Assembly: GCF_054482595.1 (NCBI RefSeq)
Contig: NZ_CM137008.1
DNA length: 64,000 nucleotides
Strand: one strand, 5' to 3'
The notes under the pieces were generated by a model, which was given only the letters and a program-made list of their open reading frames with translations, ran no database searches and was not told the origin of the DNA. The position numbers and the translations under genes were made by a program. Each line of letters opens with the position of its first letter. Positions within the stretch are counted from its first letter, which is position 1. This document shows, piece by piece, positions 4,107 through 45,600 of this stretch.

Positions 4107-4196
4107 CGGAGAGATGCCGGAGCGGCTGAACGGACCGGTCTCGAAAACCGGAGTGGGGGCAACTCCACCGGGGGTTCAAATCCCCCTCTCTCCGCC
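4107..4196 (+). tRNA. serU: tRNA-Ser (CGA), 90 nt with long variable arm; 3' part is the phage attachment core
   Basis: GGAGAGATGCCGGAGCGGCTGAACGGACCGGTCTCGAAAACCGG...GGTTCAAATCCCCCTCTCTCCGCCA; anticodon loop CTCGAAA. Confidence 0.9.
4135..4196. repeat. attL core: 62-bp direct repeat (2 mismatches) shared with attR
   Basis: cggtctcgaaaaccggagt[g/a]ggggcaactc[c/t]accgggggttcaaatccccctctctccgcca found at 4135-4196 and 43190-43251. Confidence 0.85.
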
Positions 4197-4243
4197 AAAA
4201 TTCAATCACTTACACATCATTAAGTCAGTGACAAAAATCACAC

Positions 4244-4278
4244 TTGGAATTACTTGGAATATTTTCTTGGAATATTTT
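4244..4278. promoter_or_regulatory. Three direct copies of TTGGAAT(ATTTTC): candidate integrase arm-type binding sites (P' arm)
   Basis: Copies at 4244, 4254, 4267; same motif at 43079-43089 and inverted at 43141-43150 near attR; overlaps int 3' end. Confidence 0.4.
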
Positions 4279-5275
4279 CAGGTAACGGGACATCAAGTGT
4301 TGGTGAAACTTTAACCTTCCTGTCATAGATTAGCACTTGCCCTTCGGTTTTGTGACCAGAGAAAAGTTGCTTATCCCGGCTGCTTCCTTCATAGTCTGAA
4401 ATTCCTTTCGCCTTCAGATCATGAAAGGTGAAGTCGGTTAAAATACCTGAAATTTTTCCAGCACGATTTCTTGCATCTACCCACATTTCGTTAAAGCCTT
4501 TGTACATATATCGGTTGCCGTATTGATTGCTGATCACATAGGCAGATTTTGGTAACTGTTTTGCTTTTTCGATCGCTGCCTGTAATCGTGGACTCCATGC
4601 TTTTATCTGTTTTTTTCCGGTTTTCCCTTGCTGGATGAATATCCCGTCGTTTCCAATCTGTTCCCATTTCAGCGATAACACATCGGAAACCCTCGCTGCA
4701 CACAGATAGGCAATTTCCATTGCGATAAAAACAGGAAGAGGTGCAACGCTTAATACTGCCTGGTATTCTTTGTCGGTTACATATCGTTCGCGGTTTTTGG
4801 CCTTGAATTTACTTACACCTGCACATGGGTTAGCCTTCACGTACCCTCGCTCATACCCCCAACTGTAAACACGGGACATACTGCTTTTTTCATGGTTGGC
4901 TTGCGTTTTACTCTGCTCCCCTCTTTTGTCCATGTATCGACGGATGTGTTCTGGTTTTATGGAATCCGCTGGTACCTTACCGAATACGGCAAGCAACTTT
5001 TTTTGATGTTGCAGATAATCTTTTTGTGTTCTTGGACTAAGGTCACTGTAATAGGCGCTGGCGAGGAATTTTTCCCACAAGCGACCGAATGTCATTGCAC
5101 GATCGCGATTATTTACAGTTTCCTCATACTTTTTCCATAAAGCAGCTAAACCATCCTTGATGGCGGTTAGTGTGACAGATTCTCTGGATGTTGGTTTCCA
5201 TACATAACTATATTTATTTGGGTATACATTTGGAGGTAATTTTTCGTGTTCAGGATTTTTCCTTCGTCTTCCCAT
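4250..5275 (-). CDS. int: Tyrosine recombinase / phage integrase
   Basis: 341-aa ORF adjacent to attL; C-terminal catalytic region with R...HxLR...Y-type residues (FTFHDLKAKG...LFSGHKTEGQVLIYDRK). Confidence 0.85.
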   Translation of the reverse strand: MGRRRKNPEHEKLPPNVYPNKYSYVWKPTSRESVTLTAIKDGLAALWKKYEETVNNRDRAMTFGRLWEKFLASAYYSDLSPRTQKDYLQHQKKLLAVFGKVPADSIKPEHIRRYMDKRGEQSKTQANHEKSSMSRVYSWGYERGYVKANPCAGVSKFKAKNRERYVTDKEYQAVLSVAPLPVFIAMEIAYLCAARVSDVLSLKWEQIGNDGIFIQQGKTGKKQIKAWSPRLQAAIEKAKQLPKSAYVISNQYGNRYMYKGFNEMWVDARNRAGKISGILTDFTFHDLKAKGISDYEGSSRDKQLFSGHKTEGQVLIYDRKVKVSPTLDVPLPENIPRKYSK

Positions 5276-5478
5276 CAGATCGCACCAAAATTCGGCTCTA
5301 CCTCGCGTGGTGGTAAAGTTTTATTGCAGGTAAATAGATCCCGGCTGACAATCGGTTTGCCACTACGATTGGTATAGAACGGAAGCCCGTTTTCCATTAA
5401 CCATTTTCGCTGGTGGCTTGCATATTTGCAGCCCGTTAATATTTGCAATTCATCTTCGGTTAAAAATAAGCTGCTCAT
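5275..5478 (-). CDS. xis: Excisionase-like small DNA-binding protein
   Basis: 67-aa ORF directly upstream of int with 1-nt stop/start overlap. Confidence 0.6.
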   Translation of the reverse strand: MSSLFLTEDELQILTGCKYASHQRKWLMENGLPFYTNRSGKPIVSRDLFTCNKTLPPREVEPNFGAI

Positions 5479-5536: not shown

Positions 5537-7978
5537 TTAAAAATCAGCCTGACTCGGGATCAGTTTTTGCCAGATAGCTGAAACGTATTTTGCCTGGTAA
5601 CGAGCGTCATCAAGTGCATTATGGCGCTCACCTTCGAATGGAATAGCCGTTCTGGCATCGAAGTCTATGGCTTTCCCCAGCTCAACGATTGTGCGTACAT
5701 CGCGATCGTTGTAGTAACGCCACGGGCAGGGGATCCCCTGCCGTTCGTATGAACGGCGCAAAATCGTGTTGTCGAAGTTGGCTCCATTTCCCCAGACCTG
5801 AACAAAAAATTCACCGGAGTTTTCGTCGATAAATTCCCGCAATTGTAACAGTGCATCATCTAACGGGATTTCATCGGTCATAATGGCAGATTGCGCTTCG
5901 CGTGATTGCTTAAGCCACCATTTAATGGTGTCCCGATCAATGACTCCGCCAGCAGTTTCCAGATCGATAGTCTTACTAAATTCCGGTCCCATATCTCCGG
6001 TTTGCGGATCGAAAAATATTGCACCTATTGAGATGATCGGGGCATCAGGATTTTTTCCCATGGTTTCAAGGTCGATCATTAGATGGTCACACGTCCTGCT
6101 GGTGGATGTGATTTCGTGATGACCGTTCACCTTAATTGAGTGATCTGCCGTCTCGCCAGTTTTATTATCGCTGGCGTGATGCTGATTGCCGCCAGGGTTC
6201 TCCTTGTGTGGATGTTCAGCGCCTTCCATTTCCTCCGGATCATTTTCCTGAACTTCAACCTGATTCTCTTCATCGAATGTTTCCTGGTATGTTGCGTCGC
6301 CCATCACCGCGCCACAATCAGGGCAGTTGACGCCACCGCTCTGACCGCAGGCGGTGCAGACTTTTTCCGGTTCCTGTTGCGCTACTGATTCGGATTGTTT
6401 CGTTTCTGGCTCGTTTTGTAACGCATTTGGGCTGTTTTGTTCCGCTTTTTGGTCGTTCCGTTCCGATTCATGCTGGTTCTGGTTCACAGAATCGCGAGTC
6501 TGGATCCCCTTGACCCATTTCGGATCATTAGGGTCGCTAATCCCCTCAACAAATTCACCACGCGATACAGCAAGTAACTTATCGGCGTCAGGCTGGCTGA
6601 TATTGGCTGCCTGCATAATTTTGTTTACTTCGTCAGCGGTGACTTTTACTTGGTTAGCGGAACTCACCTGCGACTGAGCATCCAGCGACTGCGCGTTCTG
6701 GCCATGTTCAGTTGTATCCGGTTCCATTGTTTCAGTTGTTGCCTGTTCACCTGCCATTGCGTCAGATGGTTGTGGTTTTTCTTCTTCTGTTTCACGCTCA
6801 GTAACCACCTCGCGGTTAATTTCTTCCAGGATATCTTTTTCCGGCGTATGCCGGGCAGCTGTGAGAGTTTCCTTGCTGGGGTTCTCGTGATCAGTTTCCG
6901 TCAAATAGGCGTTGATATACCCCTGAAGGCGTCCCGGGTAGTGATAAAATTCAGGGTGTGCGCTTCGGATAAGTGCAAAAATAGCGGCGCGGGAATAGTC
7001 CAGAATACCCGGGGTTGCACGAAGTGCTGCGGACCATTCTTTGAACGGACTTTCTTTGTTCAGGACTACTTCTTTTGCGCGACGATAAACGCTGCCCGGA
7101 ATTTCATAAATATTAAAATCCATCGGAAGTGTGGCTGCTGCAATCTCCACATCCAGTGTGTCGAGGGTGTGTACTAAATTCGGATTGCGATCGGTTTTGT
7201 TCCCACCGCCAGCATTAGCACCGGAAGCCGTGCGGGTGATGCGTGAAACACGATTTCCTTTCATCCACTCTTTTGTCAGCAGACCCCGATCAGTGTAGTC
7301 AGCGTCCAGGTATGCTTCGAAAAAAGCAGTTATTAGTCCCAGGTCTGAATTACCAGGATTAGGGAAAACTTTGTCAGTGTCACGAACCAGTTTGTGGAGG
7401 TCGCGAATCTCCAGCGAGTCGAGCAGACTGGTTTTATGCGAAATAGCCAGGGCAGTAACAGCCGGTAGTTCTTCAGCCCGTGCAATGTGTAATGCCTGGA
7501 GTTCGTCGCGTGAAACGTGCGTTACTGGTTTTTCGCTGCCGTGTTGAGCAAGCCAACGAATGGGCAGTTCCTGACCGGAGACAGGCAGAAGCATGCTCTC
7601 CTCAATCTCAGTCATGTCTTCGCCGTTGATGTTGGTATTGTCAGTGCTGGCTGGTTTGTCCTGAACAGAGGGGGAAGGGCCGATAAATGTCATTGTGATG
7701 CCATCTTTCCCGCCTTTTTCATAGCGGTTGCAGAATTCAGTATCAAACACGCCTTCTGGCGGAAGGTCGTCAACAACGGGCAAATTGACGCGGACGGGTT
7801 TTTTAAAGTCGTCTTCATCATAATCGTTGTCATCCATTGCGGTAATGCAGCGGGAGATTGCAACAGATAATTTTTTTGCTGTAGTCCAGTAAAAACCACC
7901 TTTAATTCCCAGGCGTTTTCTTACTTTGTCATTTTTTGCTTCGCAATATAGTGCAAATTCTTCTTTATCAGTGCTCAT
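5537..7978 (-). CDS. Large phage early protein with C-terminal DEDDh (DnaQ-like) 3'-5' exonuclease domain
   Basis: 813 aa; C-terminal motifs [21 protein letters not shown]; upstream Cys4 cluster [16 protein letters not shown]; long acidic low-complexity linker. Confidence 0.6.
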
Positions 7979-8071
7979 TATTGGTAAACCTCATCACAGA
8001 TTTAAGGGTGAACAAATCTCTGCCATTGCTGACATATAAGAATGAAACTGGATATTTATTACGGTGCTGTT

Positions 8072-8263
8072 TTAAAATCCTGCCGGGATTTCGTTATTAT
8101 CCTGGTGAATAACTTTATCGACCGGATAACAGTTGCCTGGAATTTTCTGTTCGGTTGCTGCTGCCATACATTCCTGCTTTGTTCTGTGAACACTGACTGC
8201 AATATCAACTGGCTCTCCGGAAACAAGAAAAACCGTCAGAATAAGTGCAAATACTGGATTCAT
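8072..8263 (-). CDS. ydfD: Small secreted/membrane protein, YdfD-like
   Basis: 63 aa MNPVFALILTVFLVSGEPV... with N-terminal hydrophobic segment; start overlaps dicB stop (ATGA). Confidence 0.5.
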   Translation of the reverse strand: MNPVFALILTVFLVSGEPVDIAVSVHRTKQECMAAATEQKIPGNCYPVDKVIHQDNNEIPAGF

Positions 8264-8448
8264 TGTGCACATCCTTTTGGCATCATACGTAAACGGGCCA
8301 GCATTGAAACAATGCATACTTTATTTAATAACTCCCGTTCGTGTTTTCTTTTGTTAATGGCATCTTCAGTAAATACAGGATTACTGATAGTGACACCAAT
8401 TTCAAAACAACCTTCAGACGTATTAACGTTTGGTAATAACGTTTTCAT
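8260..8448 (-). CDS. dicB: Cell division inhibitor DicB
   Basis: 62 aa MKTLLPNVNTSEGCFEIGVTISNPVFTEDAINKRKHERELLNKVCIVSMLARLRMMPKGCAQ, matching my recollection of Qin DicB. Confidence 0.75.
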   Translation of the reverse strand: MKTLLPNVNTSEGCFEIGVTISNPVFTEDAINKRKHERELLNKVCIVSMLARLRMMPKGCAQ

Positions 8449-8617
8449 TATCGCGCCCTCAACAATGAGTTTTGTGATGCGGTGCCTGGTGCCTCCAGGT
8501 GACGTTAACCAGTTAACAATTAACGCCGGATACAGAGAATCCACCCATAACACTGTTTTTGGTTTTAACTGTTCCGCGTGCGCTTAGCCGCATTCACCGC
8601 ATCACAAAATTCACTTT

Positions 8618-8675
8618 AAAAAGGGCGGCAGAGCAGTCACGGAGTAAAACTGATACCGCCAAACGTCACCAGAAA
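8618..8675 (-). ncRNA. dicF: DicF small RNA (ftsZ-targeting sRNA of the dicB operon)
   Basis: Minus strand reads TTTCTGGTGACGTTTGGCGGTATCAGTTTTACTCCGTGACTGCTCTGCCGCCCTTTTT, matching remembered DicF with terminal hairpin and U-run. Confidence 0.7.
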
Positions 8676-9015
8676 ATTGATAACAGAGGGCGTTGCAGCG
8701 GGGTTGTCACTTAAGCGTATGGTCAACCTGACAACCCGGTGTCCTCAACGGGGAAGGAATAACCCCGCCATACTTACCGCCGCGCCATTTCGCGGAGTGC
8801 CACAACCGGAAGCGCACGGTCGACGAAAATTTAACGACAGGCTATCTATGAACCAGCTACCTCGCCGTGCGCTTTCGCGTTATGGTCTGACTTTTCAGGG
8901 AAATATCCTTTCAGTAAACTGTCAGTGCCGGATGCTCACCCGTGTCCGGCGCACGCACTCCACCTCACCCGTGGAGAACTCCTTAATTACCAACCTTAGC
9001 TTCGTTGGTTAGCTA

Positions 9016-9234
9016 TTAACGCGGGTATGTAATCATTCTGGCAATGCTTAATGCCGCTGCTTTTTCCAGATTGGTGATATCCTGCTCCAGAGCGGACAGA
9101 TTTTCAGCCTGCTTAGCCCTGGCTTCATTAGCCCATTTCAGATCCTGCGCTGCATTAATTTTCTGGCGCATCCACTCATAAAGTTCATCATCGGTATAGT
9201 CTGGCGCGATTATGACGGGTTCTCGTTTCTGCAT
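9016..9234 (-). CDS. ydfC: Small early-operon protein, YdfC-like
   Basis: 72 aa from MQKREPVIIAPDYTDDELYEWMRQ...; position upstream of dicF as in Qin. Confidence 0.5.
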   Translation of the reverse strand: MQKREPVIIAPDYTDDELYEWMRQKINAAQDLKWANEARAKQAENLSALEQDITNLEKAAALSIARMITYPR

Positions 9235-9326
9235 GTCAGCTCCTTGTGGTTCGCATTGCCTGCTTTTAACCACGTCAGGCGAGGTGGTATCCTCTGAGGG
9301 GTCTGTTACTCGAGAGGAAATTGGTT

Positions 9327-9527
9327 ATGAATACAATCAAGTTTTCTTGCCCAGAATGTGGTGGCGAAGTCTTTGACACATCCTTTAAGCCGCAGGGCTC
9401 TGACAGTTTCGCGGGAGCCATCTGCAAAAATTGTGGTCACCTTGTAACTGAAGATGAGTCCTCGCAGTTCGATGACGAAATCGTTGACAATATCTTCGGT
9501 GCACTCACCAGAGACTTTCTGAAATAA
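9327..9527 (+). CDS. Small zinc-ribbon protein (CxxC...CxxC)
   Basis: MNTIKFSCPECGGEVFDTSFKPQGSDSFAGAICKNCGHLV...; SD-like gagaggaaa ~7 nt upstream; antisense to leftward early operon and overlaps minus-strand ORF 9306..9662, so only one is likely real. Confidence 0.4.
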   Translation: MNTIKFSCPECGGEVFDTSFKPQGSDSFAGAICKNCGHLVTEDESSQFDDEIVDNIFGALTRDFLK

Positions 9528-9851
9528 AGACGCATACCGCTTAGTTACCGCTCTGATAACTCTTACCTGTCCGGCAATGGCGCTGATGTCAATATAAAGC
9601 GCCATTGCTGCTTCTTTGCCGATCCCGTGATGCCTTCCATTCTGATGTTTGACTTCGCCCACTGAGAAATCCTCTGTTTCCCCTTAACGCCGGGGTAGCG
9701 GAACAAAAACCTGCTGCATAGTTATTAAAGTTGGACCCTGCCGTCATGTTCTTACGCCTCGGGCTGGCTACTTAACCCCTGACCACTGCCTGGTAACTCG
9801 AAGTATTGCCCTGCATTCTGTGGGGCGGGGTGGGTTGGTATGAAAAGAAGG

Positions 9852-9889
9852 ATACCCATAGGTATTTAAAAAGTAAATACCCATGGGTA
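9852..9889. promoter_or_regulatory. Candidate OL operator pair (palindromic TACCCAyrGGTA sites) and leftward early promoter region
   Basis: atacccataggtat (9852-9865) and tacccatgggta (9878-9889); related to acctgtgggtat sites between repressor and cro. Confidence 0.45.
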
Positions 9890-9931
9890 ACTTTTTGCGG
9901 TGTCTTAACTGGTGACTAGTTGTTTGGTGAG

Positions 9932-10351
9932 CTATGATGCGTTTTGTGCTTTCTTTTTACGGATTTCTTCGTAGATCATATTGTAATACTGTTTTTTCTC
10001 TTCAAGAGTTTTTAATAAGTTATCCGCTTCACTTTCTGGCAGTTCGTCTAAGAGATCTAAAAAAATACGTTGTCGTGGCGTTAGAACCCTTGTTTCATAA
10101 CTGGAGGCTGTGTTCGTTGATGATGAAACGATACCATCCATCCATCCCCGGGGTAACCCAAAGGACTCTTCGATAATCTCCACCATATCATCAGCGATCC
10201 GTTTTTTTCCCTTTTTCCCCTCTGGGTACAACATTCTTGATACATAAGAAGGCTCGCGCCCGATCTTTCTGGCCACGTTAACCGCTTTACCATCGCATTT
10301 CTCATCACGAATTTTGATGAGTTGCTGTCGTCTAAATTCATATTTGTCCAT
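9932..10351 (-). CDS. Prophage repressor (CI-like, HTH)
   Basis: 139 aa with HTH-like GKAVNVARKIGREPSYVSRM; divergent from cro-like gene; flanked by operator-like repeats. Confidence 0.65.
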   Translation of the reverse strand: MDKYEFRRQQLIKIRDEKCDGKAVNVARKIGREPSYVSRMLYPEGKKGKKRIADDMVEIIEESFGLPRGWMDGIVSSSTNTASSYETRVLTPRQRIFLDLLDELPESEADNLLKTLEEKKQYYNMIYEEIRKKKAQNAS

Positions 10352-10387: not shown

Positions 10388-10423
10388 ACCTGTGGGTATT
10401 GACTTTTGTTTACCTGTGGGTAT
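10388..10423. promoter_or_regulatory. Candidate OR operators: two direct copies of ACCTGTGGGTAT in the repressor/cro divergent region
   Basis: Copies at 10388-10399 and 10412-10423. Confidence 0.5.
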
Positions 10424-10451
10424 TCTTTACTGTGTTTACTAAGGAGTAGCT

Positions 10452-10733
10452 ATGGAAGAATTAAGAATATTTCTCAATTCTCTTTCGTCAGATGAACAGC
10501 GTATGTTTGCATGCGAGTGTGGTACCAGCATCGGTTATCTAAGAAAGGCATTGAGTAAAGGTCAAGTGTTAGGGGCATCGTTATGCGTCCTTATTGAGCG
10601 AGCCAGTAATGGTGAAGTTACACGTCAGCAACTAAGGCCTTTTGATTGGATGAATATTTGGCCCGAGCTGGAAGATACCAAAACGTTAACACAACCACTT
10701 TCTAGGAGCTTGATTCATGAAAATCAAGCATGA
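10452..10733 (+). CDS. Cro/YdaS-like HTH regulator
   Basis: 93 aa; AGGAG SD; first gene of rightward operon; helix-turn-helix-like CGTSIGYLRKALSKG. Confidence 0.6.
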   Translation: MEELRIFLNSLSSDEQRMFACECGTSIGYLRKALSKGQVLGASLCVLIERASNGEVTRQQLRPFDWMNIWPELEDTKTLTQPLSRSLIHENQA

Positions 10734-11142
10734 ACACATCCGCATGGCGATGAATGCCTGGGCGCATCCGGACGGTGAAAAAGTTCCGGCAGCTGAAATA
10801 ACCAGGGCTTATTTTGAACTGGGTATGACGTTCCCAGAACTGTATGACGACAGCCATCCGGAAGCCCTGGCTCGCAATACCCAGAAAATTTTCCGCTGGG
10901 TAGAGAAAGACACCCCTGATGCAGTTGAAAAAATTCAGGCGTTGTTACCAGCGATCGAAAAGGCAATGCCACCTTTGCTGGTGGCCAGAATGCGCAGCCA
11001 CAGTTCAGCTTATTTTCGGGAGCTGGTGGAGACGCGGGAGCGACTGGTGAGAGACGCTGATGATTTTGTCGCAGTGGCAATCGCCGGTTTCAATCAGATG
11101 AACCGTGGTGGCCCGGCAGGAAATGCTGTGGCAGTACATTGA
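10717..11142 (+). CDS. YdaT/CII-like early protein
   Basis: 141 aa, starts MKIKHEHIRMAMNAWAHPDGEK; follows cro-like gene as ydaS-ydaT in Rac-type prophages. Confidence 0.45.
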   Translation: MKIKHEHIRMAMNAWAHPDGEKVPAAEITRAYFELGMTFPELYDDSHPEALARNTQKIFRWVEKDTPDAVEKIQALLPAIEKAMPPLLVARMRSHSSAYFRELVETRERLVRDADDFVAVAIAGFNQMNRGGPAGNAVAVH

Positions 11143-14222: not shown

Positions 14223-14376
14223 AAACGGTTTGCGGGAAAAGGAGAGTTAAGTAGAATTGCAGCGGGTGCTTGAGGCTATCTGTCTCAGGCATGAACACCA
14301 AAAGGCAGATAGAGAAAAGCCCCAGTTAACATTACGCGTCCTGCAAGACGCTTAACATTAATCTGAGGCTCAATCT

Positions 14377-14589
14377 ATGAACGGCAAATCTAGGTTAGCC
14401 TCTTACGTGCCGAAAGGCAAGGAGAAGCAGGCTATGAAGCAGCAAAAGGCGATGTTAATCGCCCTGATCGTCATCTGTTTAACCGTCATTGTGACGGCAC
14501 TGGTAACGAGGAAAGACCTCTGCGAGGTACGAATCCGAACCGGCCAGACGGAGGTCGCTGTCTTCACAGCTTACGAACCTGAGGAGTAA
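14377..14589 (+). CDS. mok: Mok-like leader ORF, in-frame N-terminal extension of hok
   Basis: 70-aa ORF MNGKSRLASYVPKGKEKQA... continuing into the Hok reading frame. Confidence 0.45.
   Translation: MNGKSRLASYVPKGKEKQAMKQQKAMLIALIVICLTVIVTALVTRKDLCEVRIRTGQTEVAVFTAYEPEE
14434..14589 (+). CDS. hok: Hok/Gef-family type I toxin
   Basis: 51 aa MKQQKAMLIALIVICLTVIVTALVTRKDLCEVRIRTGQTEVAVFTAYEPEE; complementary mRNA end elements at 14263-14276 and 14639-14653. Confidence 0.8.
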   Translation: MKQQKAMLIALIVICLTVIVTALVTRKDLCEVRIRTGQTEVAVFTAYEPEE

Positions 14590-14732
14590 GAGACCTGGCG
14601 GGGGAGAAATCCCTCGCCACCTCTGATGTGTCAGGCATCCTCAACGCACCCGCACTTAACCCGCTTCGGCGTTTTTTCCGTTGATTAACTCTAGTTATTA
14701 GAGAACCGAACTTTTATTGATGGGGCAGGGAG

Positions 14733-18018: not shown

Positions 18019-18094
18019 GGCCCTTTAGCTCAGTGGTGAGAGCGAGCGACTCATAATCGCCAGGTCGCTGGTTCAAATCCAGCAAGGGCCACCA
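18019..18094 (+). tRNA. tRNA with CAU anticodon (Ile2/Met-like)
   Basis: GGCCCTTTAGCTCAGTGGTGAGAGCGAGCGACTCATAATCGCCAGGTCGCTGGTTCAAATCCAGCAAGGGCCACCA. Confidence 0.8.
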
Positions 18095-18095
18095 A

Positions 18096-18172
18096 CCGCC
18101 ACTAGCTCATCAGGAAAGAGCGTCAACCCTTTAAGTTGAGTGTGCGAGGTTCGAGTCCCCGGTGGCGGTCCA
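18096..18172 (+). tRNA. tRNA, anticodon read as UUU (Lys) but loop atypical; identity provisional
   Basis: Acceptor CCGCCAC/GTGGCGG, D and T arms, encoded CCA; anticodon loop CCTTTAA with C at position 33. Confidence 0.55.
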
Positions 18173-18174
18173 GT

Positions 18175-18250
<76 letters not shown>

Positions 18251-18253
18251 TAT

Positions 18254-18328
<75 letters not shown>

Positions 18329-28771: not shown

Positions 28772-29157
28772 TGAGGATAGATGTGATGACTAAAAATATC
28801 CGCAATCTGGCACTGGCAACGATGTCGGGGTTTCGCCATAAAACTGTTGATGTGCCTGAATGGGAAGGGGCAACGGTTGTATTACGGGAACCTTCTGCAG
28901 AAGCCTGGTTGCGCTGGCAGGAGATCGTTAAAGCAAAAGATGATGAGACACCGTTATCCGTTGCGGAGCGCGCCCGCCGAAATCTGGAGGCAGATGTTGA
29001 ACTGTTCATTGATGTTCTGTGTGATACCGGACTGCAACCTGTATTTTCAGAGGATGATCGTGAACAGGTGATTGCCGTGTATGGCCCGGTGCATGCGCGG
29101 CTTCTTCGGCAGTCTCTGGAACTGATCAGTGATGCCGGCGAGGTTAAAAAAAAGTAG
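28771..29157 (+). CDS. Tail assembly chaperone (lambda G-like); 3' end has slippery site
   Basis: ORF ends ...GEVKKK* on A-AAA-AAG at 29148-29154; alternative start ATG 28786. Confidence 0.65.
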   Translation: MRIDVMTKNIRNLALATMSGFRHKTVDVPEWEGATVVLREPSAEAWLRWQEIVKAKDDETPLSVAERARRNLEADVELFIDVLCDTGLQPVFSEDDREQVIAVYGPVHARLLRQSLELISDAGEVKKK

Positions 29158-29459
29158 CGCTTCCGGGGATGCGTTTTCTGATGATGCTGGCGCTCAGGAT
29201 GGGGCGCACATTGTCAGAGTTACGCCGGGAAATGTCCGCATCAGAAATCATGATGTGGGCAGAATTTGACAGGTTCAGCCCGCTGGGTGACGAGCGGGCT
29301 GATATCCGGGCTGCCCAGATAGTTTCTGCGGTTTACGGTGCGCAGGGTGTCAAAGTCCCACTGAATGATGCGCTTCTTCAGTGGGAACAAGAGCAGACAG
29401 AAGGCGTCTCAGATCCATTTGCCGGACTGGAAAACGCGCTTTTAATAGTGTCTCAGTGA
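28771..29459 (+). CDS. Tail assembly chaperone GT-like fusion made by -1 programmed frameshift
   Basis: Downstream ORF 29169..29459 is in the -1 frame relative to G and lacks its own SD. Confidence 0.55.
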
Positions 29460-29469
29460 GTCAACATAA

Positions 29470-29488
29470 CCGCTTCGGCGGTTTTTTT
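29470..29488 (+). terminator. CCGCTTCGGCGG hairpin + U-run between chaperone and tape measure genes
   Basis: ccgcttcggcgg followed by ttttttt. Confidence 0.45.
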
Positions 29489-29498
29489 CGTCCGGAGA

Positions 29499-32400
29499 AT
29501 GAGTGTGGCGACATTACGTGAACTGATTATTAAAATCTCGGCAAATTCCCGGTCATTCCAGTCAGAGATCTCCCGGGCTTCGCGTATGGGGCAGGATTAC
29601 TACCGTACCATGCAGAACGGAGGCCGGCAGTCCGCTGCTGCATCCCGTGAAATGCGGCGTGCACTGGCAGAAGTGACGGATCAGATAAATACAGCTAAAT
29701 CTTCGGCACTGAATATGGCGGGGGCATTTGCCGGAGCTTTTGCTACCGGTCATCTTATTTCTCTCGCCGATGAGTGGAATTCAGTAAATGCCCGTCTGAA
29801 GCAGGCTTCACAGTCCAGTGATGATTTTCAGGTATCACAACGTGAATTAATGGCAATCAGCCAGAGAACGGGAACGGCGTTTTCTGATAACGCCAGCCTT
29901 TTTGCCCGCTCTGCAGCTTCCATGCGGGAGTATGGCTACAGTTCTGAGGAGGTACTGAAAGTCACCGAGGCGATCTCCACGGGCCTGAAATTATCCGGTG
30001 CCAGTACAGCAGAAGCCAGTTCGGTGATCACGCAGTTCAGTCAGGCACTGGCGCAGGGAGTGCTGCGCGGTGAAGAATTTAACTCTGTGAATGAGAACGG
30101 CGATCGTGTTATTCGTGCGCTGGCTGCGGGAATGGGTGTTGCCCGTAAGGATCTGAAGGCCATGGCGGATAACGGAAAACTGACCGCCGATAAGGTTGTT
30201 CCTGCACTGATTAGTCAGCTTGGGGCGTTGCGTGATGAATATGCAGCAATGCCTGATACTGTTTCATCCTCTGCAACCAAAGTTGAAAACGCCTTTATGG
30301 CCTGGGTTGGTGGTGCGAACGAGGCAAGCGGAGTGACAAAGACACTCACCGGGGTGTTGAATGGTGTTGCAGACAATATGGATACCGTGGCTGCTGCAGC
30401 TGGCGCACTGGTTGCCGTCGGGGTAGCCCGATATTTTGGCAATATGGCGTCGTCTGCTGGATCTGCAACTGCCGGATTAATTACTGCAGCCAGAAACGAA
30501 GTGGCTCTTGCTGAAGCGCAACTTCGGGGGACACAGATAGCAACCGCCAGGGCGCGTGCGGCGGTTTATCGTGCGCAACAGGCGGTTGTTGCTGCTCGCG
30601 GTACCGAAAGGCAGGCCGCAGCAGAAGCGAAGCTGACAGCTGCCCAGGCGTCACTTACCCGTAATATTGCGGCCAGAACAGCGGCACAGACAACGCTGAA
30701 TACTGTCACGTCAGTGGGGAGTCGTCTGTTAAGTGGTGCGCTGGGGTTGGTTGGTGGTGTGCCGGGACTCGTCATGCTGGGGGCGACGGCCTGGTACACG
30801 ATGTATCAGAATCAGGAGCAGGCCAGAGAATCTGCACGCCAGTATGCCGCAACAATCGACGAAATTCGCCAGAAAACGTCGGCAATGTCGCTTCCTGAAG
30901 CGTCAGATAATGAGGAAAAGACGCGGCAGGCACTTGATGAGCAAAATAGGTTAATTGACGAGCAGAAAAGTAAGATTAAATCCTTACAGGAAAAAATTGC
31001 TGGCTATCAGTATGTGCTGGCAAACCCGGGCTGGACAACCGATAACGGTTTTATGATTAACCACATGATGTCGGTAAAAACTGTCACAGAAGGGCTTGCA
31101 GAAGCAACAAATCAACTGGCAGTTGAACAGTCCCGTCTCACACAAATGCAGGGCAAAGCGCAATCCATTCAGGATGTGCTTGCCGGGCTGGAGGAGCGAC
31201 GGGTGGCGTTGATCCGTCAACAGGCCGCGGAACAAAACAAAGCGTATCAGTCCCTGTTGATCATGAATGGGCAGCATACCGAGTTTAATCGCCTTCTCGG
31301 GCTCGGTAATGAATTACTTCAGCAGCGACAGGGGCTGGTGAATGTACCGTTACGGCTACCACAGGCAACCTTGGATGATAAACAGCAGACCGCACTGAAT
31401 AACAGTGAGCGCGAACTGGCTCTGTCCCGCCTGAAGGGGGAAGCCCGTGAGCGTGCCCGCCTGGGTTATGCTGCGGATGATCTCGGCTTTGTGGGAGAGG
31501 CGTATCAGACAGCCAGACAGAATTATATCAATAACTCACTGGATGCCTGGCGAAATAACCAGGCAAATAAACCCAAAGCGCATAAAAAGACCGAAGCGGA
31601 AAAAACAGAAGATATTTATAAACGGCTGATTAAACAGCAAAAAGAACAAATAGCACTGGCAGGTCAGAATACTGAACTGGCTAAGATGAAATATCAGGTC
31701 AGTCAGGGCGAATTATCAACCCTGTCAGAAGCGCAGAAAAAAACGCTTTTACAGAATGCGGCACTCATCGACCAGAAAAAGATTCGTGAGCAGCTTGCCG
31801 CGTATGAAAGCAGTCTGGCGGACAGTAATGCCAGCGCCCGGGCATCTGACGACGCGCAGTTGCTGGGATATGGTGAAGGCTCACGGATGCGTGAACGACT
31901 CCAGGAAATGTGGAGTATCCGGCAGGCGTTTGAGCAGAAAAATAACGAGCTGCTGAGACAGTATCAGGCCGGAGAAATTGAAGAAGCCCTGTGGAAACAG
32001 GAGAAAGAACTGAATAAAAAATATCTGGAAGAGCGTCTCAGCGATCAGCAGGATTATTATGCAAAGGCTGATGCTTTACGCAGTAACTGGAATGCCGGAC
32101 TCCAGGAGGGGCTGACGAACTGGGCAGACAGTGCCACTGATTATGCTTCGCAGGCGGCAGATGCTGTCGTTTCCACTATGGACGGGCTGGTATCAAATAT
32201 TTCCGATGCACTGGCCGGAAATGTTGTGGACTGGAGAAACTGGGGGAGTTCAATTCTCCAGGAAGTTTCAAAAATTCTGATGAACGCTGCCATCGTTAAC
32301 GGGCTGAAGTCACTTTCCAAAAGCATGTCCGGTGCCGGAGGATGGCTTGGTACAGTCGGCGACTGGCTGTCCGGTGCAGTGGCAAACGCAAAAGGTGGTG

Positions 32401-32744
32401 TTTATACATCGGCAAATCTGAGTGCTTACAGTAACACTATTGTGGATACACCGACGTATTTTGCTTTTGCGAAAGGTGCCGGGTTGATGGGCGAGGCCGG
32501 GCCTGAAGCAATCATGCCACTGACACGGGCAGCGGACGGCTCTCTTGGGGTCAGGGCCATTGGAAATGTGAATGGTGGCGGTGGATTTGTTTATTCTCCC
32601 GTGTATCACATCAGCATTCAGAATCAAGGGAGCAATGGCGAGATAGATGCGCGCTCAGCCAGGGGACTGGTGGATCTGATCGACAGCAGGGTTGTGTCAA
32701 TTATGCAGTCATCACGTCGGGACGGAGGATTATGCAGTGCCTGA
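29499..32744 (+). CDS. Tail tape measure protein
   Basis: 1081 aa, Ala/Gln-rich coiled-coil-like; position after G/GT. Confidence 0.85.
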   Translation: MSVATLRELIIKISANSRSFQSEISRASRMGQDYYRTMQNGGRQSAAASREMRRALAEVTDQINTAKSSALNMAGAFAGAFATGHLISLADEWNSVNARLKQASQSSDDFQVSQRELMAISQRTGTAFSDNASLFARSAASMREYGYSSEEVLKVTEAISTGLKLSGASTAEASSVITQFSQALAQGVLRGEEFNSVNENGDRVIRALAAGMGVARKDLKAMADNGKLTADKVVPALISQLGALRDEYAAMPDTVSSSATKVENAFMAWVGGANEASGVTKTLTGVLNGVADNMDTVAAAAGALVAVGVARYFGNMASSAGSATAGLITAARNEVALAEAQLRGTQIATARARAAVYRAQQAVVAARGTERQAAAEAKLTAAQASLTRNIAARTAAQTTLNTVTSVGSRLLSGALGLVGGVPGLVMLGATAWYTMYQNQEQARESARQYAATIDEIRQKTSAMSLPEASDNEEKTRQALDEQNRLIDEQKSKIKSLQEKIAGYQYVLANPGWTTDNGFMINHMMSVKTVTEGLAEATNQLAVEQSRLTQMQGKAQSIQDVLAGLEERRVALIRQQAAEQNKAYQSLLIMNGQHTEFNRLLGLGNELLQQRQGLVNVPLRLPQATLDDKQQTALNNSERELALSRLKGEARERARLGYAADDLGFVGEAYQTARQNYINNSLDAWRNNQANKPKAHKKTEAEKTEDIYKRLIKQQKEQIALAGQNTELAKMKYQVSQGELSTLSEAQKKTLLQNAALIDQKKIREQLAAYESSLADSNASARASDDAQLLGYGEGSRMRERLQEMWSIRQAFEQKNNELLRQYQAGEIEEALWKQEKELNKKYLEERLSDQQDYYAKADALRSNWNAGLQEGLTNWADSATDYASQAADAVVSTMDGLVSNISDALAGNVVDWRNWGSSILQEVSKILMNAAIVNGLKSLSKSMSGAGGWLGTVGDWLSGAVANAKGGVYTSANLSAYSNTIVDTPTYFAFAKGAGLMGEAGPEAIMPLTRAADGSLGVRAIGNVNGGGGFVYSPVYHISIQNQGSNGEIDARSARGLVDLIDSRVVSIMQSSRRDGGLCSA

Positions 32745-33078
32745 GTCTGAAGTTTTTAACTGGATCCCCCGCGAGGGGATGGAGACGACACGAAAGCCAT
32801 CTGTTATTACGGTAAAGTTCGGTGACGGATATGAACAGCGACGGGCTGGTGGTCTGAATGCAGATCTGAAAACGTTTAAACCGGTATTTCGTGTCACGGA
32901 TGAATATTCCCGTGCCGCGCTGGACAGTTTTTTATCCCGTCATGCCGGGGTTCGTGCTTTTTTGTGGCGTCCGCCAAAACACAACAGGACTGTCCGGGTT
33001 GTCTGCAGGGAGTGGAGCATTTCGGATAATGCCATGTATACCGATTTTAACTGTACCTTTGAAGAGGTCACTCACTGA
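32737..33078 (+). CDS. Minor tail protein M (lambda gpM-like)
   Basis: GTG start overlapping tape measure stop; ...KPSVITVKFGDGYEQRRAGGLNADLKTF... resembles lambda M. Confidence 0.7.
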   Translation: MPESEVFNWIPREGMETTRKPSVITVKFGDGYEQRRAGGLNADLKTFKPVFRVTDEYSRAALDSFLSRHAGVRAFLWRPPKHNRTVRVVCREWSISDNAMYTDFNCTFEEVTH

Positions 33079-33776
33079 TGCAGGATATACAGCAGGAAAC
33101 ACTCAATGAGTGCACTAAAACGGAGCAATCCGCGCTGGTCGTGCTCTGGGAAATTGATCTGACAGAGGTCGGCGGAGATCGTTATTTCTTCTGTAATGAG
33201 CAGAACGAAAAAGGTGAACCAGTCACCTGGCAGGGGCGGCAGTATCAGGCCTATCCCATTCAGGGAAGTGGATTTGAGATGAACGGCAAAGGAGCCAGTG
33301 CAAGGCCAACGCTGAAAGTCTCTAATCTGCACGGCATGGTCACCGGGATGGCGGAAGACCTGCAGAGTCTGGTCGGCGGAACGGTGGTCAGGCGTAAGGT
33401 TTACGCCCGTTTTCTGGATGTGGTGAACTTCGTCAACGGAAACAGCGAAGCCGATCCGGAGCAGGAGGTGATCAGCCGCTGGCGCATCGAGCAGTGCAGC
33501 GAACTGAGCGCGGTGAGTGCCTCTTTTGTACTGTCCACGCCGACGGAAACGGATGGTGCTGTTTTTCCGGGACGTACCATGCTGGCCAACACCTGCACCT
33601 GGACCTATCGCGGTGATGAGTGCGGTTATCACGGTCCGGCGGTTGCGGATGAATATGACCAGCCGACGTCCGATATCACGAAGGATAAATGCAGCAAATG
33701 CCTGAGTGGTTGTAAGTTCCGCAATAACGTCGGCAACTTTGGCGGCTTCCTTTCCATTAACAAACTTTCGCAGTAA
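33078..33776 (+). CDS. Minor tail protein L (lambda gpL-like)
   Basis: 232 aa with C-terminal Cys cluster CTWTYRGDECGY...CSKCLSGC. Confidence 0.8.
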   Translation: MQDIQQETLNECTKTEQSALVVLWEIDLTEVGGDRYFFCNEQNEKGEPVTWQGRQYQAYPIQGSGFEMNGKGASARPTLKVSNLHGMVTGMAEDLQSLVGGTVVRRKVYARFLDVVNFVNGNSEADPEQEVISRWRIEQCSELSAVSASFVLSTPTETDGAVFPGRTMLANTCTWTYRGDECGYHGPAVADEYDQPTSDITKDKCSKCLSGCKFRNNVGNFGGFLSINKLSQ

Positions 33777-33781
33777 ATCCC

Positions 33782-34525
33782 ATGACAGAGACAGAATCAG
33801 CGATTCTGGCGCACGCCCGGCGATGTGCGCCAGCGGAGTCGTGCGGCTTCGTGGTGAGAACGCCGGAGGGGGAAAGATATTTTCCCTGCGTGAATATCTC
33901 CGGTGAGCCGGAGGATTATTTCCGGATGTCGCCTGAGGACTGGCTGCAGGCAGAGATGCAGGGTGAGATTGTGGCGCTGGTCCACAGCCACCCCGGTGGT
34001 CTGCCCTGGCTGAGTGAGGCTGACCGGCGGCTGCAGGTGCAGAGTGATTTGCCGTGGTGGCTGGTCTGCCGGGGTGAGATTCATAAATTCCGCTGTGTGC
34101 CGCATCTCACCGGGCGGCGCTTTGAGCACGGGGTGACGGACTGTTACACGCTGTTCCGGGATGCTTACCATCTGGCGGGGATTGAGATGCCGGATTTTCA
34201 TCGTGAGGATGACTGGTGGCGTAACGGCCAGAATCTCTATCTTGACAATATGGAGGCGACTGGTTTTTACCGTGTCGCACTGACAGAGGCGCAGCCGGGC
34301 GATGTGCTGCTGTGCTGTTTTGGTTCATCGGTGCCGAATCATGCCGCCATTTACTGCGGCGACGGCGAGCTGCTGCACCATATTCCTGAACAACTGAGCA
34401 AACGAGAGAGGTATACCGACAAATGGCAGCGACGCACACACTCCCTCTGGCGTCACCGGGCATGGCACGCATCTGCCTTTACGGGAATTTACAACGATTT
34501 GGCCGCCGCATCGACCTTCGTGTGA
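33782..34525 (+). CDS. Tail tip assembly protein K (lambda gpK-like)
   Basis: 247 aa; MTETESAILAHARRCAPAESCGFVV...HSHPGG; close to remembered lambda K. Confidence 0.8.
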   Translation: MTETESAILAHARRCAPAESCGFVVRTPEGERYFPCVNISGEPEDYFRMSPEDWLQAEMQGEIVALVHSHPGGLPWLSEADRRLQVQSDLPWWLVCRGEIHKFRCVPHLTGRRFEHGVTDCYTLFRDAYHLAGIEMPDFHREDDWWRNGQNLYLDNMEATGFYRVALTEAQPGDVLLCCFGSSVPNHAAIYCGDGELLHHIPEQLSKRERYTDKWQRRTHSLWRHRAWHASAFTGIYNDLAAASTFV

Positions 34526-35070
34526 AAACGGGGGCCGAAGCCATCCGGGCGCTGGCCATGCAGATCCCGGCGTTTCGTCAGAAACTGAGTGACGGCTGGT
34601 ATCAGGTACGGATTGCCGGGCGTGATGCAGGTGAAACCGAATTGTCTGCCCGTCTTAATGAGCCGCTGGCAAATGGTGCCGTGATCCACATCGTTCCGCG
34701 TCTGGAGGGGGCCAAAAGTGGCGGTGTGTTTCAGGCGGTGCTGGGTGCGGCGCTGATTGCGGTGGCATGGTGGAACCCTGTGGGCTGGCTGGGGGCCGCG
34801 GCTGTATCGGGTATGTATGCAGCAGGGGCCAGTATGATCCTGGGTGGTGTGGCGCAGATGCTGGCACCGAAAGCCAGGACGCCCACGGCAGCCAGTACAG
34901 ATAACGGCAAACAGAACACGTATTTCTCGTCACTGGATAACATGGTTGCCCAGGGCAATGTTCTGCCCGTTCTGTACGGTGAAATGCGTGTGGGGTCGCG
35001 GGTGGTATCTCAGGAGATCAGCACGGCAGATGAAGGTGATGGTGGTCAGGTTGTGGTGATTGGTCGCTGA
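34423..35070 (+). CDS. Tail assembly protein I (lambda gpI-like)
   Basis: 215 aa MAATHTLPLASPGMARICLYG...; overlaps 3' end of K. Confidence 0.7.
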   Translation: MAATHTLPLASPGMARICLYGNLQRFGRRIDLRVKTGAEAIRALAMQIPAFRQKLSDGWYQVRIAGRDAGETELSARLNEPLANGAVIHIVPRLEGAKSGGVFQAVLGAALIAVAWWNPVGWLGAAAVSGMYAAGASMILGGVAQMLAPKARTPTAASTDNGKQNTYFSSLDNMVAQGNVLPVLYGEMRVGSRVVSQEISTADEGDGGQVVVIGR

Positions 35071-35130
35071 TGAAAAATGTTTTATGTGAAACCGCCTCCG
35101 GGCGGTTTTGTCGTTTATGGAGCGTGAGGA

Positions 35131-38100: not shown

Positions 38101-38607
38101 AGTGGCAGTGTGAATGCGAACGCCGGGGCGCTCAACAACGTCACGATTAATGAGAGCTGTACTATTAAGGGGATGCTTGATGCTAACCAGGTGCGTGGTG
38201 ATTTTGTAAAAACGACAGGGCATCGATTTCCGCACCCCGGAGAATACCCACAGGGTTCACTTACCGTTCATATTAAGGACGATCATGCCTTTGACAGGCA
38301 GATTATAATTCAACCAATCATGTACGGTGCACCACCATATTTTAGTAAAAATGATGGCGCTAATATCTACGATACCTGCAGATTAATTGTGCGCAAAAAT
38401 GGCAATGTAATCTATGACAAATCCACTAGTGGTTCGAAAAGGACAACAGTCGTGTACAGCAATATCATTGATATGCCAGTGGGGGACGGAGATGTAATAT
38501 TAACATTTGAAGTTCAGTCGAGCGGCAGTGGAGATCCCAGAACATGGATCAGTGATTTAATGGTCTCGGTAACGAAAAAAGCCGCATCCGGTATCAGTAT
38601 CAGTTGA
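35131..38607 (+). CDS. Host specificity / central tail fibre protein J
   Basis: 1158 aa; position after I; lambda J-like N-terminal and central regions. Confidence 0.85.
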
Positions 38608-38627
38608 AATTTTTATAACCCCAATAC

Positions 38628-38653
38628 GGGCGCCAGAAATGGCGCCTTTTTTA
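38628..38653 (+). terminator. Rho-independent terminator after J
   Basis: gggcgccagaaatggcgcc followed by ttttttatt. Confidence 0.7.
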
Positions 38654-38676
38654 TTGCAGAAAAGCGAGAGGTAATT

Positions 38677-39276
38677 ATGCGTAAAGTTTGTGCAGCCATT
38701 TTTTCCGCAGCCATCTGTCTGGCCGTATCCGGTGCGCCTGCATGGGCGTCTGAACATCAGTCCACACTGAGCGCAGGGTATCTTCATGCCCGTACGAACG
38801 CACCCGGCAGCGATAATCTGAACGGGATTAACGTGAAATACCGTTATGAGTTTACGGACACACTGGGGCTGGTGACGTCATTCAGCTATGCAGGAGACAA
38901 GAATCGCCAGCTTACCCGTTACAGCGATACCCGCTGGCATGAAGATTCAGTGCGTAACCGCTGGTTCAGCGTGATGGCGGGGCCCTCTGTGCGCGTGAAT
39001 GAATGGTTCAGTGCGTATGCGATGGCGGGCGTGGCTTACAGCCGTGTGTCGACTTTTTCCGGGGATTATCTGCAGGTGACCGACAGCAAGGGGAAAACGC
39101 ACGATGTGCTGACCGGCAGTGATGACGGTCGCCACAGCAACACGTCTCTGGCGTGGGGGGCTGGCGTGCAGTTTAACCCGACCGAATCCGTGGCCATTGA
39201 TATTGCTTATGAAGGCTCCGGCAGTGGCGACTGGCGCACTGACGGTTTCATCGTGGGCGTCGGTTATAAGTTCTGA
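38677..39276 (+). CDS. lom: Lom-like outer membrane beta-barrel protein (Ail/Lom family)
   Basis: 199 aa with signal peptide and C-terminal ...GVGYKF. Confidence 0.8.
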
Positions 39277-39334
39277 TTAGCCAGGTAACACAGTGTTATG
39301 ACAGCCCGCCGGTTCAGGCGGGCTTTTTTGTGGG

Positions 39335-42259: not shown

Positions 42260-42843
42260 TGGCATTCAGAATGAGTGAACAACCACGGACCATAACAATT
42301 TATAATCTGCTGGCCGGAACTAATGAATTTATTGGTGAAGGTGACGCATACATTCCGCCTCATACAGGTCTGCCAGCAAACAGTACCGATATTGCACCGC
42401 CAGATATTCCGGCTGGCTTCGTGGCTGTTTTCAACAGTGATGAGGCATCGTGGCATCTTGTTGAAGACCATCGGGGTAAAACAGTTTATGACGTGGCATC
42501 AGGGAACGCGTTATTTATTTCTGAACTCGGCTCATTACCGGAAAATGTTACCTGGTTATCCCCGGCAGGGGAGTTTCAGAAGTGGAACGGCACAGCCTGG
42601 GTGAAGGATACGGAAGCAGAAAAACTGTTCCGGATCCGGGAGGCGGAAGAAACAAAAAACAGCCTGATGCAGGTAGCCAGTGAGCATATAGCGCCGCTTC
42701 AGGATGCTGTAGATCTGGAGATCGCAACGGAGGAAGAAAACTCGTTGCTGGAAGCCTGGAAAAAGTATCGGGTGTTGCTGAACCGTGTTGACACATCAAC
42801 TGCACCTGATATTGAGTGGCCGGAAGAACCAGACACAATGTAA
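42259..42843 (+). CDS. tfa: Tail fibre assembly protein
   Basis: 194 aa; start overlaps stf stop (ATAATGG). Confidence 0.7.
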
Positions 42844-43189
42844 GCGAAAAAGAAAAACCGCAGACACGACGTATGCAGGACGTGCTGCGGTTGGCTGGTG
42901 AACTTTCGATAGTGCGAGTATTGAATGATTTCCAGCCGTTACCGATTTTATATAACTGCAGTGGAATTATTCAACACACAGGCAAAACGGAATAAGCTGA
43001 GAAAAAAGCGTGCTTTCCCAATCTGGGGCAAATCACGTCTGAATGACACCTGAAAACAGGTGGTGGACTCAAGACGGCTTGGAATATTCTTCTTTAATGT
43101 TATGTAATTCATTGATTTTTCGTGTACGATTTTAAGACATTTATTCCAAGAAAAATTTTTAACTCTTTGATTTTTCGACTCTGTATCAT

Positions 43190-43251
43190 CGGTCTCGAAA
43201 ACCGGAGTAGGGGCAACTCTACCGGGGGTTCAAATCCCCCTCTCTCCGCCA
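43190..43251. repeat. attR core: partial serU 3' end (62 bp)
   Basis: Direct repeat of 4135-4196 with 2 paired differences. Confidence 0.85.
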
Positions 43252-45568: not shown

Positions 45569-45600
45569 GGGATAACGCGTACTTTGTCGGCAATATGAAG

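Follow-up and report, generated by a model that had tools for sequence, protein, structure and literature searches.

A dicF-dicB-ydfD block nearly identical to that of Qin in the putative early-left operon of an apparently complete lambdoid prophage at serU

Within the window, by which we mean the complete stretch of 64,000 nucleotides from contig NZ_CM137008.1 (RefSeq assembly GCF_054482595.1), a group of small genes on the minus strand resembles the ydfC-to-ydfD part of the cryptic Qin prophage of E. coli K-12. An earlier note had placed the sequence of the DicF small RNA, a 62-aa DicB and a YdfD-like protein at 8072-8675, and all three were located there by means of Rfam, NCBIfam and alignment to K-12. 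Together with their upstream neighbours, the features of this locus are as follows.

8072-8263, minus strand: ydfD, for a DUF1482 lysis protein of 63 aa whose N-terminus is hydrophobic (full-length phrog_1092 match)
8260-8448, minus strand: dicB, encoding the 62-aa cell-division inhibition protein (NCBIfam NF049927)
8449-8622, minus strand: the 174-nt dicF-dicB spacer, containing a conserved structured leader (core 8471-8611), putatively STnc100-related
8623-8674, minus strand: gene of the DicF small RNA, including an intrinsic terminator of its own (hairpin plus T-run; Rfam RF00039 match)
8675-9015, minus strand: the ydfC-dicF interval, ~340 nt and highly structured, with only 9 differences from K-12
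9016-9234, minus strand: ydfC, encoding 72 aa, function unknown (phrog_1744 match; PGAP name 'protein YdfC')

The dicF gene was matched by RF00039 at 76.7 bits, compared with a gathering threshold of 48 (E = 3.6e-15), over positions 1-52 of the 52 in the model, and DNA alignment found it 100% identical to K-12 dicF at each base, terminator hairpin and T-run included. NF049927 likewise covered residues 1-62 of the 62 in DicB at 134.1 bits (cut-off 100), and 59 of these 62 residues (95%) are those of K-12 DicB, the substitutions being Q36H, I44V and L55M. A search of a large protein collection returned 144 relatives of DicB, with Pfam PF05358 present in all 120 of those listed. When 24 full-length representatives with identities down to 58% were aligned, the DicB of the window was found to keep all of the 26 invariant columns, and the three substitutions fell in columns that vary within the family (H/Q/Y, I/V/N and L/P/M, respectively). 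Alignment to K-12 dicB and dicF, which had been proposed in the earlier note as a check, hence gave an undiverged DicF and a DicB with all of its conserved residues kept. The YdfD protein could be aligned without gaps to its K-12 counterpart, with 87% amino acid identity and with C32 and C45 kept, and ydfD overlaps the stop codon of dicB by 4 nt, as it does in K-12. No NCBIfam model matched YdfD in our search, and the PGAP name for its gene, taken from DNA 100% identical to window positions 8000-9320, is 'DUF1482 family protein'. Judged from these alignments, dicF, dicB and ydfD are orthologous, and nearly identical, to their counterparts in K-12 Qin.

Comparing window positions 8050-9290 with Qin, we found the two to be collinear from the start codon of ydfC to just beyond ydfD, with 96% mean column identity over this 1.2-kb block and with one base different from K-12 in the coding part of ydfC. 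To judge from the alignment, such a match lies far beyond chance. In the cryptic Qin prophage, where the genes run as ydfABC-dicF-dicB-ydfDE under DicA/DicC, the order, spacing and overlap of ydfC-dicF-dicB-ydfD are the same as in the window, and the likeness includes the 340-nt precursor region as well as the 174-nt spacer between dicF and dicB. The earlier statement that the arrangement is that of Qin holds for this gene order but does not extend to the flanks. In the window prophage ydfA and ydfB are absent, with similarity to K-12 stopping at the ydfC ribosome-binding site, and the PGAP annotation of a near-identical genome holds neither ydfA nor ydfB. Unlike in Qin, a zinc-ribbon gene is located on the opposite strand upstream of ydfC, and the repressor and cro genes differ in type from the DicA/DicC pair; the repressor gave only a weak match to the DicA model, confined to its last 50 aa (23.9 bits, cut-off 101). 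Downstream of ydfD an 813-aa exonuclease is found, whereas Qin has ydfE in that position. The possibility that this exonuclease represents an undisrupted version of ydfE, a pseudogene in K-12, was considered and discarded, as BLASTP against translated ydfE gave a best E-value of 4.3, and because the exonuclease has no similarity to YdfE the collinearity with Qin ends just beyond ydfD. Further differences from Qin are that the window prophage has no IS2 and that its int/xis and late genes are present.

The RNA reaching from ydfC to dicB (567 nt) was predicted to fold at -225 kcal/mol, with z = -4.9 compared with shuffles, and such a strong predicted structure fits the processing pathway known from K-12. 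On the plus strand, an antisense ORF of 111 aa at 8677-9012 fills the gap between ydfC and dicF and is open in K-12 too; we judged it to be non-coding on account of its TTG start, the 6 amino acid changes that arise from ~9 nucleotide differences and its lack of a PHROG match.

Within the spacer between dicF and dicB, the core was matched by the Rfam model of STnc100 (RF02076) at 38.8 bits, which is below the gathering threshold of 47 (E = 2e-6), and the same model gave 33.5-43.8 bits at six related loci. By these scores the core would be a relative of STnc100, not a certified member of that family. Elsewhere, the same near-invariant core was found upstream of unrelated genes, at 42-58 nt from their start codons, namely the kil genes of Stx phages and of PhiR5_2, Rac-SA53 kilR, and terB/tciA from the P7 and D6 ban operon; among Rac-SA53 and the Stx phages examined, a sub-threshold DicF-like match upstream of the leader was seen in Rac-SA53 only. 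In a survey using an exact 20-nt seed, 120 viral contigs were found, which together with the reference loci gave 91 distinct element sequences. The gene after the leader encoded DicB in 52 of these, Kil in 21, a Rha-type regulator in 10, TciA/TerB in 5 and a few other products in the rest.

Using RNAalifold with 23 diverse copies of the leader, we obtained a predicted fold with a closing helix around three further helices and with 98% of cells paired. Double changes were found at 5 of the 32 pairs; shuffles gave 1.0 +/- 0.8, with none of the 500 attaining that number, and slid controls gave 0-3. The support that covariation would lend to this predicted fold is modest, because most columns are invariant, few lineages contribute the compensatory changes and the seed biases the sample. 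STnc100 and PasD have reportedly been linked as related prophage sRNAs in a 2026 preprint. As a tentative proposal, which we hold with more doubt than confidence, the ~140-nt core at 8471-8611 could be a portable structured RNA leader that follows a DicF-type terminator and gates the next host-takeover gene, within a unit composed of sRNA, leader and exchangeable toxic ORF, whereby the STnc100 and PasD 'sRNAs' would be versions of the leader. The gene gated in this manner may be that of DicB here, and other lambdoid and P1-like phages may have Kil, TciA/TerB, Rha-type regulators or small membrane proteins in its place. The element may be a separate sRNA, a cis-acting leader of toxic early genes or a recombination linker. 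The leader upstream of dicB is the sole element of this locus that is possibly worth a study of its own.

The block lies within a lambdoid prophage of ~39.1 kb, bounded by direct repeats of 62 nt that are 97% identical (2 mismatches). Its bounds, and the early and control genes that surround the block, are given here.

4108-4197, plus strand: tRNA-Ser(CGA) gene serU (ARAGORN)
4136-4197, plus strand: attL, the 3' part of tRNA-Ser(CGA), direct repeat
4250-5275, minus strand: integrase, 341 aa (phrog_1)
5275-5478, minus strand: excisionase (phrog_1266)
5537-7978, minus strand: exonuclease, 813 aa, the next gene after ydfD in the putative early-left operon (PRK09709, phrog_607, phrog_20376)
9327-9527, plus strand: small zinc-ribbon gene, between predicted PL and ydfC
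9848-9894, minus strand: predicted OL/PL, with two operator copies (ACCCATGGGTA, ACCTATGGGTA) interleaved with TTTACT-17-TATCCT
9932-10351, minus strand: prophage repressor, 139 aa (full-length match to phrog_5736, transcriptional regulator)
10388-10430, plus strand: predicted OR/PR, with two ACCTGTGGGTATT operators and TTGACT-16-TATTCT
10452-10733, plus strand: cro-like regulator (phrog_35 / phrog_163 matches for this gene and the CII/YdaT-like gene as a pair; PGAP names)
10717-11142: CII/YdaT-like gene, following the cro-like regulator
43190-43251, plus strand: attR, a 62-nt direct repeat copying the tRNA-Ser 3' end

Along the minus strand the gene order is repressor, ydfC, dicF, dicB, ydfD, exo, xis and int. 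The exonuclease was matched in its N-terminal part by NCBIfam PRK09709 (exodeoxyribonuclease VIII) at 935.9 bits, which is below the cut-off of 1269. Beyond the CII/YdaT-like gene we found a replication initiator, a Ren-like gene, hok/sok, a RusA-type resolvase and a Q antiterminator, then four tRNA genes and the holin, lysozyme and spanin genes, followed by HNH endonuclease, terminase, portal, protease and HK97-type capsid genes. The right part of the prophage holds connector and tail genes, J, Lom, a tail-fibre gene and a tail-fibre assembly gene. As assessed by ORF lengths, PGAP annotation of relatives and PHROG matches, the int, xis, immunity, replication, Q, lysis, packaging, head and tail genes are all open.

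Two strains carry close relatives of this DNA, namely Ecol_881 (99.5% identity to window 3037-29319) and SM107 (99.8% identity to window 28800-47199). PGAP has all prophage genes of both as intact, except for the integrase of Ecol_881, which is flagged 'frameshifted' and to which the integrase gene of the window is identical. The flag derives from a perfect 13-nt tandem duplication (AAAATATTCCAAG) located ~20 codons past the catalytic Tyr, which swaps the last nine residues of the integrase for five. Searching with a synthetic single-copy version, we found the two-copy form, as present here, in ~1050 genomes and the single-copy form in ~66, making the former ~16-fold commoner. With the duplication placed after the catalytic Tyr and the two-copy form being the commoner one, we rejected the 'frameshift' as a sign of decay, and on these counts the two-copy integrase would seem to be a common allele and not an obvious lesion. 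The description of the prophage as complete in appearance, given before on the sequence alone, was borne out by the 62-nt att repeats and the uninterrupted gene set, and is justified at the level of sequence.

The control region showed a symmetrical layout around the repressor gene. Motifs of 11-13 nt at 9852-9864 and 9877-9889 (ATACCCATAGGTA, ATACCCATGGGTA) are reverse-complement relatives of those at 10388-10400 and 10412-10424 (ACCTGTGGGTATT), the latter sitting in the gap between the repressor and cro genes, and the repeat families D6, I1, I3, I6 and I9 connect 9852-9889 with 10388-10424. As the promoter architecture is also alike at both operator sites, we infer that the two operator pairs are OL/PL and OR/PR. 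The operator sequences appear to be this prophage's own, unlike the control by DicA/DicC in Qin. The hairpin at 9853-9889, which had come up as a terminator call and as a 'mir-2041' match, was reinterpreted as the OL operator pair. The candidate PL has 8 of 12 consensus matches and was not listed by the promoter scan. The arrangement of the early-left operon is that of lambda PL, and the K-12 dicB promoter has been described likewise, as PL-like (PMC6832061).

With regard to induction, no match to a self-cleavage domain was found in the repressor using NCBIfam or PHROGs, a protein which with only 139 aa has no room for such a domain, and no LexA box (TACTGT-N8-ACAG, one mismatch allowed) was found in the early region. 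Between PL and ydfC there was no N-like antiterminator gene, the small ORFs in that interval matching only PHROGs of unknown function. The PL-proximal RNA had no unusual structure (z = 0.06). Since the zinc-ribbon gene at 9327-9527 is on the plus strand, transcription between PL and ydfC would be convergent.

Taking these observations together, we consider it probable, at roughly 0.85, that dicF, dicB and ydfD at 8072-8675 belong to a PL-type, early-left operon in a lambdoid prophage that has integrated at serU, working in the manner outlined here. In the lysogen, the 139-aa repressor would bind the two operators at 9852-9889 and keep the PL-like promoter off. Derepression would give a leftward transcript starting at ~9840, passing through ydfC and the structured 340-nt region and continuing on through the exonuclease, xis and int. 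Cuts made by RNase III and by RNase E would free DicF from this transcript, with the 3' end set by DicF's own terminator, and DicF together with Hfq would then repress ftsZ and other mRNAs. Read-through past the DicF terminator would yield transcripts holding the conserved leader, dicB and ydfD. DicB would bind MinC and bring it to ZipA at the division ring, giving filaments, and should in addition stop the ManYZ-dependent entry of phage DNA. YdfD would act as a lysis protein that inhibits IspG, the effect being masked during the division block. The whole would do the same job as kil in lambda and Rac, i.e. an early and transient arrest of host division.

The steps of this scheme follow those described for the orthologues in K-12. 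There, the transcript is processed by RNase III as well as RNase E, with a main species of 1,146 nt that ends at dicF and another of 1,608 nt that reaches ydfD (PMC10448788). Induction of the K-12 operon results in filamentation that is mostly DicB-dependent, while DicF alone, expressed from the intact operon, gives little filamentation; DicF represses the translation of ftsZ and also represses xylR and pykA (PMC5069750). DicB works through MinC and ZipA, not directly on FtsZ, and blocks ManYZ-dependent phage entry (PMC6832061). The earlier wording, by which both DicB and DicF inhibit assembly of the FtsZ ring, is correct as to inhibition of division and loose as to the means, for DicF acts at ftsZ translation and DicB via MinC/ZipA (PMC5069750, PMC6832061). 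The ftsZ gene of the present host lies beyond the window. YdfD, counted in the earlier note as part of a division-inhibition module, is a lysis protein and no division inhibitor; it brings about the lysis of dividing cells, an effect that DicB masks, and it binds IspG (PMC8835842). In the uropathogenic strain UTI89, a screen for filamentation picked out the exoO-dicB-dicF-ydfC region (PMC6206680). That induction of the present prophage would block division is a reasonable inference from these K-12 and UTI89 data, and the interpretation given in the earlier note appears essentially right, with its observation confirmed.

A different view of the cassette is that it mainly serves the lysogen, with DicB guarding the host against superinfection by phages that use ManYZ for entry, and DicF retuning metabolism and virulence genes, expression of DicB being low-level or restricted to a subpopulation and division arrest being a side effect of over-expression. 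DicB expression does cut the plating of lambda to 1.6-4% via ManYZ (PMC6832061), dicBp is spontaneously on in a subpopulation and DicF builds up in stationary phase (PMC10448788), and the block is kept in 4755 of 5426 genomes, often in multiple copies. Against this, the cassette is part of a repressed early-left operon with no lysogeny-active promoter ahead of it, and the genes of phage Tritos that were expressed above background in strain LF82 did not include dicB or ydfD (PMC9928086). We find a primary role in the lysogen possible but doubtful; such a role would also be compatible with transcription from PL upon induction, as we propose here.

It could also be argued that the prophage is intact in looks only, being not inducible or not excisable, so that the cassette would be a domesticated, host-controlled toxic operon as in cryptic Qin. 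The PGAP frameshift flag on the identical integrase of Ecol_881 would point in that direction, as would the fact that no SOS box, cleavable repressor or antirepressor was found and the fact that the closest 'phage' records (ON470xxx) are PHASTER predictions with no virions. The integrase evidence loses force with the two-copy form occurring in ~1050 genomes versus ~66 and altering only the last residues, past the catalytic Tyr; the att repeats are moreover nearly perfect, and the structural, lysis and replication genes are all open and match intact annotated relatives at 99.5-99.8%. We regard loss of inducibility or of excision as rather unlikely on this evidence. Very improbable, in our judgement, is an inert passenger in which the DicF terminator stops transcription, leaving dicB and ydfD silent and DicF as the sole product. 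That terminator is intact, an antiterminator gene was not found near PL and the terminated 1,146-nt transcript is dominant in K-12, but the 1,608-nt read-through transcript is known from the same strain (PMC10448788), and the reading frames of dicB and ydfD, the ribosome-binding region and the overlap are all preserved. Many diverged copies of DicB furthermore keep its invariant residues, which speaks for selection at the protein level. An operon that is repressed in the lysogen and transcribed from PL upon derepression is the reading that we retain.

With respect to distribution, a 1.3-kb block from this locus was matched in 4755 of 5426 complete E. coli genomes, at least 80% of its length being present in 2674 of those 4755, the median being 2 places per genome and the maximum 10. 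The presence of the dicBF cassette in many E. coli prophages has already been published (PMC5069750), and dicB was also found by us in phage mEp460_ev081, an infant-gut phage (Ev081) according to the LF82 paper (PMC9928086). The ON470xxx records named 'Escherichia phage vB_Eco...' were not accepted as proof of viable phages, as they are PHASTER genome predictions per their source paper and one of the records has host flanks. The contrast implied in the earlier note, between a defective prophage in K-12 and an intact one here, is not unusual, given that the block is present in most E. coli genomes and in the plaque-forming Tritos; its occurrence in an intact or active phage has been recorded before, and the finding is ordinary and already known. 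The effects of the dicBF cassette on division, metabolism and phage entry have all been published, which leaves little weight as a discovery. Even so, the window shows cleanly how the decayed Qin locus once looked inside a complete phage. To our knowledge, the effects of DicB, DicF and YdfD have so far been studied mainly through artificial expression in K-12, and a host with this prophage would be a reasonable system for the roles of the three in a real lytic cycle.

Among known systems, the prophages of EHEC O157:H7 have the same block in several lambdoid prophages per genome (PMC5069750), at 5-6 places in two O157:H7 records listed in our search, whereas the window has one copy, carried by a non-Stx prophage that lies at serU and whose head genes are HK97-type. 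The temperate Escherichia phage Tritos (OV696610) of strain LF82, for which plaques and virions have been demonstrated (PMC9928086), shares the early-left layout int-xis-exo-ydfD-dicB-dicF-ydfC, with 96.9% identity over 93% of the 1.3-kb query and with DicF annotated in its record. Unlike the window, Tritos continues as ydfC-ydfB-ydfA-cI and has thus kept ydfA- and ydfB-like genes; its cI/cro pair and integrase are others, and it shares only ~29% of the left half of the window prophage. Finally, kil of lambda and kilR of Rac have the same place in the PL operon as proposed for dicB, with the same outcome on induction, FtsZ-ring function being blocked (PMC3961180). Kil and DicB are unrelated as proteins (phrog_294 versus phrog_1251), and the lambda Kil protein is reported to inhibit FtsZ assembly in a ZipA-dependent manner, whereas DicB acts via MinC.

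The spacer between dicF and dicB (8449-8622, minus strand) harbors a near-invariant structured element with its core at 8471-8611, which resembles the Rfam family STnc100 at a sub-threshold score. In other lambdoid phages, as well as in P1-like phages, the genes found downstream of this element include kil, kilR, tciA/terB, a gene for a Rha-type regulator or a gene for a small membrane protein. The gap between ydfC and dicF was in turn found to be filled exactly by a 111-aa ORF with a TTG start (8677-9012, plus strand), running antisense to the operon, and this reading frame is open also in E. coli K-12. Because most of the differences between the window and the K-12 copy alter amino acids, and because a search of the ORF against PHROG gave no match, we consider it to be probably non-coding.

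At 9306-9662, two fully overlapping ORFs are found on opposite strands and the coding strand is ambiguous. The plus-strand ORF would encode a CxxC zinc-ribbon protein of the ECs_2282 family (NCBIfam 57.3 bits, cut-off 37); the minus-strand ORF gives a full-length match to phrog_21318 (218.6 bits) and is the only one of the two that is co-directional with the early-left operon. At the 3′ end of the integrase gene (4250-4290, minus strand), a 13-nt unit, AAAATATTCCAAG, differs in copy number among genomes, being present in one, two or possibly three copies, and the integrase C-terminus is altered by this copy number. The form having two copies is the common one, and in one genome it was labelled 'frameshifted' by PGAP.

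Additional genes, RNAs and repeats, within the prophage except for the last two, were as follows.

14264-14590, plus strand: hok/sok type I toxin-antitoxin locus (Rfam sok, 112.4 bits)
18019-18328, plus strand: four phage tRNA genes (CAT, Lys-TTT, Thr-TGT, Gly-TCC) between Q and the holin gene
40716-41111, plus strand: three tandem 132-nt repeats (100%, 92% and 64% identity) within the gene for a 974-aa tail fibre
42602-42800, plus strand: full-length match to Rfam IS009 (222 bits) within the tail-fibre assembly gene (42259-42843)
52976-53065, minus strand: host sRNA gene rseX, in the flanking region
61421-61507, plus strand: host sRNA gene dsrA, in the flanking region

In Ecol_881, the strain with 99.5% identity to this part of the window, hokD is annotated at the position matching the hok/sok locus. 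The CAT tRNA was assigned as Met by ARAGORN but as Ile by PGAP. With IS009 matching inside the tail-fibre assembly gene, this 'sRNA' family overlaps coding sequence in the window. It is at the 974-aa tail-fibre gene that the window diverges from Ecol_881 and instead agrees with SM107, a strain 99.8% identical over 28800-47199.

The interval between attR and yodB (43252-43820, ≈570 nt) is devoid of ORFs of at least 100 aa, and a 25-nt stretch within it (43608-43632) matches a segment of the prophage's int gene at 80% identity; a previous integration event at serU may have left this sequence behind.

The GenBank 'phage' record of vB_EcoM-606R7 (ON470580.1) includes host genes at 31711-38458, namely tRNA-Ser, mtfA, tRNA-Asn and yersiniabactin genes. 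The records of this series originate from PHASTER prediction, and they should not be taken for virion genomes. The flanking rseX and dsrA genes locate the window to the serU-dsrA region of the chromosome of E. coli. The yersiniabactin island adjoins tRNA-Asn in Ecol_881, whereas the window has other sequence at that place.
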